Assembly (NCBI RefSeq): GCF_013122565.1
Contig: NZ_CP053258.1
Length of the DNA stretch: 64,000 nucleotides
From: Escherichia coli
GTDB taxonomy: Bacteria > Pseudomonadota > Gammaproteobacteria > Enterobacterales > Enterobacteriaceae
Strand: one strand, 5' to 3'
Made by a program: the position numbers and the translations under genes. Each line of letters starts with the position of its first letter. Position 1 is the first letter of the stretch. Below are positions 41,040 to 60,003 of this stretch, in pieces. The notes under the pieces were generated by a model. The model searched no databases. It was not told the origin of the DNA and saw only the letters and a list, made by a program, of their open reading frames with translations.

Positions 41040-41235
41040 CGGCCTATAAATCATCAACCGCATCCGGCACTTTTGGCGGATGCGCTGCTGGCGCATCTTA
41101 TCCGCCCTACAAGCCATGAACCGTTGACCATATAAGCGCAGCGCATCCGGCTCTTCCTGGCGGAGGCGATGCTGACGCATCTTATCCGCCCTACAAGCCA
41201 TGAACCATAGACCGGATAAGCGCAGCGCATCCGGC
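41040..41235. repeat. REP/BIME cluster with an ~80-bp direct duplication
   Basis: GCGCATCTTATCCGCCCTACAAGCCATGAACC occurs at about 41090 and 41170, interleaved with inverted GCGCAGCGCATCCGGC units. Confidence 0.8.
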
Positions 41236-41237
41236 AG

Positions 41238-57269: not shown

Positions 57270-57749
57270 ATGTCTCAAACAGAAATTATTCTTCCTTCAG
57301 GAAGAGAACTTACTCCAGGTGAATATGGTTATGCCAATCTGGAACCTGGCGATCACTACCAGACTCCCGGTCTTAACGTAACAGAGTCACAGATTGTTGC
57401 TTTTGCGGGGATAAGCGGTGATTTTTTCGATGTTCATATGGATGATGAATTTGCAAGGGAAAAAGGATTTCCAGGACGCATTGCCCACGGTCTGTTAGGT
57501 TTAGCATTGACGGACGGCCTGAAGAATCGTTCTATTGTACGTTTACGTGCAGTTGCTACATTAAACTGGAACTGGTCATTCTGTGCACCATTATTGCCTG
57601 GAGATCATATTCACGCCGTTATTACTGTTGTTAAAAAACGCCCCACCAAACGTGAAGACCGAGGCATTGTGACTTTTGCTTTACAATTGTTTAATCAACA
57701 TGGAAAGATAATACAGCGAGGCGAAACTCTGCTGATGATGATGCAATAA
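57270..57749 (+). CDS. MaoC-like (R)-specific enoyl-CoA hydratase/dehydratase
   Basis: 159 aa hot-dog-fold-type sequence; GGAAAG RBS. Confidence 0.7.
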   Translation: MSQTEIILPSGRELTPGEYGYANLEPGDHYQTPGLNVTESQIVAFAGISGDFFDVHMDDEFAREKGFPGRIAHGLLGLALTDGLKNRSIVRLRAVATLNWNWSFCAPLLPGDHIHAVITVVKKRPTKREDRGIVTFALQLFNQHGKIIQRGETLLMMMQ

Positions 57750-57868: not shown

Positions 57869-59137
57869 CTAAATTGACGACCTGAATGCCTCTGCCATTA
57901 ACTCTTGCTCACGATCAGGTAATCTAAGACGCTCGGCAATAGTTTGCCACTGACTGACAATCCCTCTAAAATTAGCAATAATGTCATCAGCTTCCGTCAA
58001 ACTAAGTCGAAAATACTCTGCAACTTCTCTAGCTAATTCCAAATCAAGTGCATTATCATTTTCCGTAATATTAAGCTTTAAACCGTCAGATCTGGAAACA
58101 GGATTCAAATCATATGCTTCAGAAAGCCGCCAACCTTTTCCCGGTATCAAGATATATCCATGATTACGTAAATGATCATCGGTATTAGAAACAAGAATAT
58201 TAAAAACAATTCTGGACCAGAGTTCTTTAAGGTCAGTATTGGTCTGCGCTCCGTGCCTGATAAGAACATCTGCTAATTCCAGATAACTTACACCTGTAGA
58301 GGCATCTTCACCATCCTGATGTCTGGTTAGTGTCATAGCCGAAGCAAAATGCAGACGCCTTCCCGCATTAGTGCGGTCAAAACGACGAACCATAAAACAA
58401 TGGTAATTGCTGGCAAATTTATGCGCCTGAGCAGGTGCAACATTCAGTCCACAGCCAACAGCAAGCGCATTAACGACCATTTCCCATCCACCAACATCAT
58501 ACTCATCTTTTGCACTGGGAAATTTAGCGATGTAAAGATGTCCGGCTTCATCAACCACACTGGCTTTTGGACGTGCACCCCCTAATGATCCCCCCGGAGC
58601 GATTAGCATTCTTAACCATTTTTGCCCCATGAGTTCTTTATTATCAGGATCTTCTTCAATTGCCCGGCTAGCCCTTTCCAGACTCGCTATTTCGGTAAAT
58701 GGTGGGGCTGCAACATTAATGCGGTTATCAAGAAACTCTCCAGCGTCTTCACGTTTGTATCGAAGAGCCCCAACCCGATAAAGATCATGAACACCTAATA
58801 GATAGTCAGACTCATAAAGGTGGGAGTCTTTATCAAATAACCCATCTCGAATATCCCTCTCAAAACGACGCTTCATTAGCATACGCCCCCAACGATCCGG
58901 GCAGGAATCACTAAACGCACCAAATTTATCCTTTGGAGGAATTGGGTACTGTGCTCCCTCATACAACATTATTTCAGGATCTAACTGAATGAAATTAAGT
59001 GCACGATCTGCAAGCGCCTTTTTATCGTACTCAAACTCAAATATCTCACGCGCCCGAGTGCGACGACTGTGTAAATAACCAATACGCGCAGGACCATCCA
59101 GGCCTTCCCAATCCGCATACACTCCGATTAATGCCAT
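57869..59137 (-). CDS. HipA-family serine/threonine kinase (type II toxin-like)
   Basis: 422 aa; HipA-like motifs GGSLGGARPKASV (P-loop-like) and DDHLRNHG (catalytic); AAGGAAAT RBS; 13 nt after HTH gene stop. Confidence 0.8.
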   Translation of the reverse strand: MALIGVYADWEGLDGPARIGYLHSRRTRAREIFEFEYDKKALADRALNFIQLDPEIMLYEGAQYPIPPKDKFGAFSDSCPDRWGRMLMKRRFERDIRDGLFDKDSHLYESDYLLGVHDLYRVGALRYKREDAGEFLDNRINVAAPPFTEIASLERASRAIEEDPDNKELMGQKWLRMLIAPGGSLGGARPKASVVDEAGHLYIAKFPSAKDEYDVGGWEMVVNALAVGCGLNVAPAQAHKFASNYHCFMVRRFDRTNAGRRLHFASAMTLTRHQDGEDASTGVSYLELADVLIRHGAQTNTDLKELWSRIVFNILVSNTDDHLRNHGYILIPGKGWRLSEAYDLNPVSRSDGLKLNITENDNALDLELAREVAEYFRLSLTEADDIIANFRGIVSQWQTIAERLRLPDREQELMAEAFRSSI

Positions 59138-59150
59138 AATTAATTTCCTT

Positions 59151-59642
59151 TTATCGGTTTTTTATCGGTTTTTTTATCGGTTGTAATAGTGCAGCAAGAG
59201 AGGTTGACGTTTCCCCTGGAATAGTTGGCGTTGAGTCTTTTGCCAGTGCTGTTAAATCCGTGGTGAGATGACCTTCTTTCTCGCGTTTCGTCTGAAATGA
59301 GGCTGTCTGAATCCCTTCTTCATTCTTAACTGATGAACGAGAAAGCCCTCTTTTTTTAATCAAACGGGAATCCTGGAGCTGATGCCCTAAGGCGTCTTCA
59401 GCTGCAAGCTTATTTAAATCCGTTTCCAGGCCCAAAACCTGCATCACAGACAAATATGCCCCTATCGTGACCCCTGCACTTCCTGCCTCCAGAGAACGCA
59501 ATGTGATTGGCGACATCCCTGCACGCTCAGCAACTTGCTTTGCGGTTAGCTTACGTCGTAAACGAGCAAGTTTCAGACGCTCACCAAATTCACTAAGCAT
59601 CTGATTCGTATAAGGGAGTAACGGTGCTGTTTTTTTACCCAT
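59151..59642 (-). CDS. XRE-family HTH protein with long low-complexity C-terminal tail (HipB-like antitoxin candidate)
   Basis: 163 aa; HTH in [39 protein letters not shown]; about 80-aa S/T/K-rich tail ending [10 protein letters not shown]; start may instead be the internal ATG at 59600. Confidence 0.7.
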
Positions 59643-59664
59643 AGTGATAATATTTTATCTTTTT

Positions 59665-59681
59665 ATGGCTATGATAGCCAT
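59665..59681. promoter_or_regulatory. 17-bp perfect palindrome ATGGCTATgATAGCCAT upstream of the HTH gene; candidate operator
   Basis: Read directly; flanked by ATAATATT direct repeats; 25-40 bp upstream of the ATG at 59642. Confidence 0.45.
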
Positions 59682-60003
59682 AATATTAGCATTTATTAGA
59701 TTGAACGCACCTGCAAAGCGTTCAGAATTATGGAAGAGATAATATCTTATCTTTTTATATATAAAAACAATAAAATAACAGCACATTAATATATAACTTA
59801 TTGTTTTTATTATCTTACAAGGGAGACACTCGCTGTATTGATGCTTTTGTCGTGTTTTATGTGTAAAAAACATGACACGAACTACCAGCGGCGAGACTGG
59901 GGGCTGGGGGCCTGGTATGGGTACTGCGAACTTTTTATAAAAGGAATAGCAAGAGATTTATGGAGGGAACGTCTATTTCTGCGGTTTTTATCACTTAAAA
60001 GCA

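Follow-up and report, generated by a model that had tools for sequence, protein, structure and literature searches.

Whether a short tandem repeat placed at the junction between an antitoxin gene and the toxin gene behind it can work as a switch on the balance between both products is the question raised by an array in a 64,000-nt stretch of Escherichia coli DNA, to which we refer as the window. An earlier note had described a triple repeat at the 3' end of an HTH gene and in the spacer before a HipA-like start, and had proposed that slipped-strand changes in unit number would alter the antitoxin tail and the spacing to the kinase ribosome-binding site, as a phase-variation-like switch. Its descriptive statements on the array were all correct when checked against the sequence, TRF and the ORFs. 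Read on the minus strand from 59180 to 59147, the array is CCGATAAAAAAA CCGATAAAAAA CCGATAAAAGG, three head-to-tail units, and it occupies 59147..59182 when the sequence, TRF, a repeat search and the comparison with two-unit alleles are taken together. Unit 1 (59180-59169, CCGATAAAAAAA) encodes P155 I156 K157 K158; unit 2, the extra one (59168-59158, CCGATAAAAAA), encodes P159 I160 K161 and two bases of N162; and unit 3 (59157-59147, CCGATAAAAGG) completes N162 and continues with R163, the TAA stop and the first bases of the Shine-Dalgarno (SD) sequence. The array thus carries the last nine residues of the hipB-like gene, PIKKPIKNR, together with its stop and the SD of a 422-aa kinase gene.

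The array was detected by TRF at 59149-59182 with a period of 11/12, 3.0 copies and a score of 59-61, being the best short-period array in the window, and the repeat search returned three perfect 11-nt copies at spacings of 11 and 12. When 200 dinucleotide-preserving shuffles of the window were run, the best TRF score for periods 7-20 had a mean of 42 and a maximum of 58, so that none of the 200 reached 59 and the repeat exceeds what is expected by chance. Its three units measure 11-12 nt each, and its longest homopolymer is an A7 run.

The array closes a hipB-like antitoxin gene (59151..59642, minus strand, 163 aa, WP_171459940.1), assigned from the ORF, Pfam, NCBIfam, alignments and AF2 models. 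The protein has an XRE-type HTH at residues 18-75 approximately (Pfam HTH_31, 3.7e-11), a variable linker of low confidence at around 96-140, and a conserved C-terminal motif, TSxSLAALLxP, at 145-155, which is followed by the basic tail IKKPIKNR; its TAA stop (59153-59151) falls inside the third unit. Behind it lies an intact hipA-like Ser/Thr kinase toxin gene (57869..59137, minus strand, 422 aa, WP_171459939.1; ORF and Pfam), whose ATG is at 59137. The kinase matches HipA_C (8.1e-47) over positions 2-213 of the 213 in the profile, and both its Gly-rich loop APGGSLGGARPKAS (GGSLGGARPKA) and its catalytic motif DDHLRNHG (DDHxRNHG) are invariant in a paired alignment of 21 sequences. With these Pfam matches, the HTH and HipA-like assignments made earlier hold. 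Sequence and allele comparison define between both genes a spacer of 13 nt from the hipB stop to the hipA ATG (59138..59150, minus strand), with the SD AAGGA at 59150-59146. The pair therefore shows the traits of a HipBA-type module, namely a kinase domain of the HipA-like type whose catalytic motifs are intact and a co-oriented upstream HTH gene coupled to the toxin gene, here with a gap of 13 nt.

The pair falls outside the K-12 HipB and HipA equivalogs. The score with the NCBIfam HipB equivalog NF007271 was 18.4 bits (cut-off 79), the NCBIfam HipB, Y4mF and YjjJ models produced sub-threshold matches only, the kinase reached 44 bits with the YjjJ equivalog (cut-off 401), and the match of the HTH protein to the couple_hipB subfamily (4.8e-8) was below the cut-off of that model. 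By these sub-threshold NCBIfam scores, the window pair is a hipBA-like module distinct from that of K-12 and belongs to a separate long-HipB subfamily. PADLOC returned generic HTH matches for HipB and no match for the kinase, and the PDB sequence matches of the kinase were only to HipT-type kinases (1e-5 to 1e-8). The supplementary files examined from PMC8262856 gave no E. coli or WP accession match by which the kinase could be assigned to one of its Hip clades.

The window pair shares with E. coli K-12 HipBA an XRE-type HTH gene placed directly before the HipA_C Ser/Thr kinase gene to which it is translationally coupled, as well as a palindrome preceding hipB. By contrast, K-12 HipB has 88 aa and the window HipB 163 aa, with a long variable linker and the conserved C-terminal motif, and the window kinase is distant from K-12 HipA. 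The same long-HipB family includes a protein of solved structure, PDB 9u9g (153 aa, "XRE family transcriptional regulator, HipB"). It aligns with residues 1-98 of the window HipB at 1.9e-29, and the family profile recovers it at 6e-42 over positions 1-127; it comes, however, from another organism, and the alignment does not extend into the C-terminal tail. A literature search on 9u9g or on long HipB proteins found nothing. In the E. coli relatives, RefSeq names the two products "helix-turn-helix domain-containing protein" and "type II toxin-antitoxin system HipA family toxin".

The gene pair lies between an MFS transporter/MaoC gene pair and rplI-rpsR-priB-rpsF. A perfect palindrome with 9-nt arms, TATGGCTAT-G-ATAGCCATA (59664..59682), forms the core of an inverted repeat (I1); it is found 22 nt upstream of the hipB ATG, within a longer imperfect inverted repeat (59648-59698), and constitutes a plausible candidate for a HipB operator. 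Scans for promoters and terminators around the operon gave results at or below those of shuffled sequence. WP_171459940.1 and WP_171459939.1 are each recorded in E. coli on one chromosome only, of 4.82 Mb. Among the complete RefSeq E. coli genomes, none exceeds 98.2% identity with a core region of the window, and for the locus itself the ceiling is about 95%, so that the window comes from a deep-branching E. coli lineage.

The consequences of the third unit were examined in an in silico series of alleles comprising one to four units and runs of A6 or A7. Only two endings came out of the series, namely ..KGN*, from whose stop 2 nt lead to the hipA ATG (TAATTATG), and ..KNR*, for which this distance is 13 nt. 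None of the modelled alleles gives an off state, which speaks against the proposed switch of toxin and antitoxin. Each unit holds an out-of-frame TAA (CCGA-TAA), so that a shifted frame stops at once. In the common allele the bases of the spacer are the hipB codons K G N stop, leaving only 2 nt from stop to ATG; in the window, HipB still has 163 aa, and only its last two residues are changed, from GN to NR. Because the SD AAGGA lies in the last and invariant unit, the distance from SD to ATG never changes across the modelled alleles, at odds with the altered spacing to the kinase ribosome-binding site that had been expected, and the sole spacing change is that from stop to ATG, from 2 to 13 nt.

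This distance was compared with that of other species, for which 80 of 153 related stretches were kept and 63 of the 80 had both genes intact. The gap between the hipB stop and the hipA start was -4 in 45 loci, -1 in 3, +2 in 9 and 3-9 in the remaining 6, and a gap of 10 nt or more was found in none of the 63 species. Against this preference of the family for tight coupling, the 13-nt gap of the window stands out as an outlier, which might not be neutral. When the junction RNA was folded, the predicted accessibility of the SD decreased from 0.86 to 0.63 with the third unit, a modest and not decisive change. A low-frequency tuning of the module, in which the gain or loss of a unit or of an A would move the stop between 2 and 13 nt and swap KGN and KNR, shifting coupling or HipB stability, seems to us very improbable. 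If true, it would alter the share of cells with HipA left unneutralised, a form of heritable variation in persistence. Apart from this, as the stop and start overlap or lie within 2 nt almost universally, the 13-nt allele is a useful natural variant for probing how much coupling weighs in the toxin:antitoxin balance.

The number of units was then compared among isolates. The locus is present in 1045 of 5426 complete E. coli genomes, and junction searches found two units in all 1045. A three-unit query against these genomes gave a best full-length match of 90.1% identity, which corresponds to an 11-nt gap, with 1020 records in the band of 80-90% identity, whereas a two-unit query aligned in 1045/1045 over at least 80% of its length at 90% identity or more. 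Among 30 sampled rows of the latter, 29 were full-length without a gap (the span in the record being equal to that of the query) and one, Ec55, was partial. These identity bands are blind to 1-nt differences in the A runs, for which the A7 length was checked only in the sampled rows and in the loci retrieved; unit 1 of one genome, EC23HZZ201, carries a run of A6 and not of A7. In metagenomes, 28 contigs were recovered, of which 26 carry the canonical two-unit allele, one an A6 run and one an extra C, and a variable-gap pattern able to catch alleles of two, three and four units detected no three-unit allele (0/28).

Three units were found in two forms. The allele of the window, with A7+A6, was seen only in its own genome and in one sequencing run, and the only other three-unit allele found, WP_086214721.1 (167 aa, 5 contigs of another lineage), has an in-frame 12-nt duplication; the in-frame A7+A7 form, ending ..PIKKPIKKPIKGN, is carried by P0125, L005 and L006. 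Natural alleles thus comprise two units with an A7 or A6 run and three units with A7+A7 or A7+A6. Over 1774 nt, L005 differs by 1 nt from two-unit alleles (DEF2, L101 and L110), whereas the window differs by at least 71 nt from all of these, L005 included. From these distances, the expansion from two to three units took place at least twice independently, although rarely. Apart from whole units, 1-nt indels in A or C runs recur in different backgrounds (L001, L096 and L111).

The part of the earlier proposal dealing with slipped-strand changes of unit number therefore finds a basis in natural two- and three-unit and A6/A7 alleles and in at least two expansions, but the phase-variation-like switch built on it does not. 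In a contingency switch, frequent and reversible changes in unit number would toggle tail length, coupling and toxin:antitoxin stoichiometry. The alleles do differ in unit number, in the length of the A run and in the distance from stop to ATG, and the expansions, at least two, and the recurrent A/C-run indels in different backgrounds also count in its favour. Nevertheless, two units were found in every one of the complete genomes and in 28/28 metagenome contigs; an invariant repeat number, which the earlier note had itself named as the outcome speaking against its proposal, is essentially what holds between isolates. In addition, there are merely two or three units of 11-12 nt, no modelled allele has an off state or an altered distance from SD to ATG, and the two-unit sequence is constrained across genera as a coding motif. 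In contingency loci such as those of Haemophilus and Neisseria, short units are reiterated in long tracts, sibling isolates differ from one another, and a gene is turned on or off. The window array resembles them in the gain or loss of tandem units and in the change of homopolymer length in or beside a coding region, but it has two or three long units, is nearly invariant across more than 1000 genomes and leads to no on/off outcome. Known contingency loci have tract lengths well above three 11-12-nt units or A6/A7 runs. Judged against this background threshold, the tract here is not a long hypermutable one; its repeat number does not vary among close isolates, and neither expression nor frame is switched on and off. 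Given more than 1000 genomes with no variation in unit number, a short tract and the lack of an off state, phase variation is unsupported, and we regard it as highly unlikely.

Errors in the length of A runs are common in long-read assemblies, and an A7+A7 allele exists in other isolates, so the A6 of unit 2 could be thought of as an assembly error hiding a true in-frame A7+A7 allele (..PIKKPIKKPIKGN, as in WP_086214721.1). The assembly of the public run SRR11451224 (Logan; L007), independent of that of the window although possibly derived from the same isolate, gives the identical A7+A6 sequence with 0 differences over 1774 nt, and there is little chance that the run was miscalled. The third unit is real whether unit 2 has A6 or A7.

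What has been conserved at this position is the peptide. The two-unit state encodes ..LAALLKPIKKPIKGN, and the tail ..[TS]SxSLAALLKP[IL]KKP[IL]KGN is kept in Salmonella, Serratia, Pectobacterium and Brenneria. Salmonella and Serratia keep the same peptide with other codons (CCA ATA AAG AAA CCC ATA AAA GGT AAC in the former, CCA TTG AAG AAA CCA ATA AAA GGC AAT in the latter). In an alignment of 26 sequences L149, L152, L153 and P155 are invariant, and more distant members have a K/R-rich tail after the conserved motif. Homologous pairs occur in Enterobacterales, Pseudomonas, Burkholderia, Achromobacter and others, the scan having yielded the 153 related stretches, and no tandem duplicate at the DNA level was found at the position of the tail in any of the 63 species-representative loci. 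Because the peptide is kept with different codons and the DNA duplicate is missing in the 63 species, selection acts on the peptide tail and not on the DNA repeat, and the near-perfect DNA repeat with its A7 run is peculiar to Escherichia, where it offers a substrate for slippage.

All these data are best explained, with good probability, by a lineage-specific slipped-strand duplication in an ancient and internally repetitive coding tail, nearly neutral and with at most a mild effect on coupling. The ancestor would have had two similar 11-12-nt units, encoding the conserved, internally repetitive basic tail P-I-K-K-P-I-K-G-N, and in Escherichia the codons of both units would have become nearly identical, A7 run included, making them a modest substrate for replication slippage. 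In the lineage of the window one unit would then have been inserted, either by a direct 11-nt duplication or by an in-frame 12-nt duplication followed by the loss of one A. Thanks to the out-of-frame TAA in each unit, the shifted frame would have terminated at once, keeping the protein at 163 aa and leaving its stop 13 nt before the hipA ATG instead of 2, upstream of an unchanged SD. The expected effect would be near-neutral, with at most a mild change in the translational coupling of hipB and hipA, and the allele would be fixed and specific to its lineage, not a reversible switch. Slippage as the mechanism and near-neutrality are what we infer here, in contrast to the anatomy, the allele distribution, the conservation of the peptide and the independent expansions, which come from the comparisons themselves. 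The repeat polymorphism is thus an ordinary indel in an already known kind of operon, a HipBA-like type II toxin-antitoxin module; it matters little, and its value is mainly to keep such an indel from being taken for a regulatory switch.

A different role could be thought of for the A7 run, as programmed -1 frameshifting or transcriptional slippage on an in-frame A_AAA_AAA would yield a HipB-HipA fusion from the two-unit allele. The bases ATA AAA AAA are in phase as X_XXY_YYZ, the -1 frame of the two-unit allele (ACC GAT AAA AGG AAA TTA ATT ATG) runs into hipA without a stop, and most members of the family have hipA offset by -1 from the frame of hipB. The resulting order of domains, HTH-kinase, would be that of YjjJ/HipH, described as a monocistronic Hip kinase family (PMC8262856), but the genes of the window are separate, and the fusion, hypothetical for the two-unit allele, is impossible in that of the window, whose third unit would abolish it, the -1 frame there ending at TAATTATG. 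Against such a mechanism, the heptamer is present in Escherichia but an in-frame A_AAA_AAN was found in only 7 of the 63 other species, a synonymous AAG breaks it in Salmonella and Serratia, and the frame relation is a trivial outcome of ATGA overlaps. As a conserved feature the fusion was rejected, given that the heptamer is absent in most genera and the overlaps explain the frame, and we consider the mechanism extremely improbable. That the units work at the DNA level, as an operator or as iteron-like binding sites, is hardly credible, for although they carry TATC/GATA, direct repeats of which weakly resemble the half-sites of some HTH operators, their third-codon positions vary across genera with the peptide kept, none of the 63 other species has a DNA repeat, and the perfect palindrome upstream of hipB is what occupies the expected operator position.

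In AF2 models, the pLDDT of motif residues 141-150 was 51 when HipB was modelled alone and reached 78 in a HipB-linker-HipA construct with a paired alignment, so that the motif appears ordered only when HipA is present. The residues from 157 onwards fall in a segment below 50 in the fusion model, and the last blocks had 57 and 45 with HipB alone; the fusion model is only moderate (pTM 0.60), and its artificial linker could depress the confidence of the tail. These models suggest that the conserved motif is a likely toxin-docking element on HipA and that the basic tail behind it is probably disordered. An analogous case is K-12 HipB, whose C-terminal tail is also unstructured and acts there as a Lon degradation signal (PMC3376134). 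For the long-HipB/HipA subfamily, which carries the TSxSLAALLxP motif and the basic tail, the motif is worth testing as a docking element.

Several observations concern the decay of the module in E. coli. A second A7 run lies inside hipB (59351..59357, minus strand; codons I94 K95 K96 R97), and a 1-nt deletion in it produces in other E. coli a truncated HipB of 117 aa, a common variant (P0122 on 71 contigs and P0123 on 47). In the four fetched loci with this 117-aa protein (L118-L121) hipA is also split into two ORFs, 4/4, the locus there being a decayed toxin-antitoxin module. All the hipB frameshift alleles examined (L001, L096 and L118-L121) adjoin a broken hipA, and the A runs of hipB are recurrent frameshift sites in E. 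coli lineages in which hipA has already decayed. As indirect evidence for a toxic kinase neutralised by the HTH protein the association is weak, since hipA is broken next to an intact hipB as well in about a third of such loci. A confinement of the A6-tail alleles to broken hipA was considered and discarded, as two cases against a background of about one-third are not significant. Truncated forms of hipA (195, 168, 84 or 81 aa) with hipB intact were seen in around a third of the sampled E. coli loci, the truncated-hipA loci being L003, L089, L091, L094, L096, L099, L102, L104 and L114, and the copy of CFT073 is annotated as frameshifted, the hipA of the window being intact. Two further +1-nt changes in the two-unit allele lead to HipB-HipA read-through products, one in a metagenome contig (L111, 1564-1602) in which a C has been added behind the A7 run (AAAAAAACCCGTT), and the other in a 201-aa database protein (P0009) that reads through from HipB into the N-terminus of HipA; either of them could be a sequencing error.

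The surroundings of the locus vary as well. The IS elements ISVsa5, ISEc35, IS1 and ISKpn26 were found in or beside the hipBA locus in several E. coli genomes (H80-H85). A MaoC-like dehydratase gene (57270-57749) lies between the MFS gene and hipA in the window and in EC23HZZ201, and the loci of DEF2, UTI89, CFT073 and L005 are without it, so that the flank of the toxin-antitoxin locus is itself polymorphic. Elsewhere in the window, an unrelated 84-nt tandem repeat at 41059-41236 (2.1 copies, 88% match, TRF score 284) looks like an intergenic element of the REP/BIME type.
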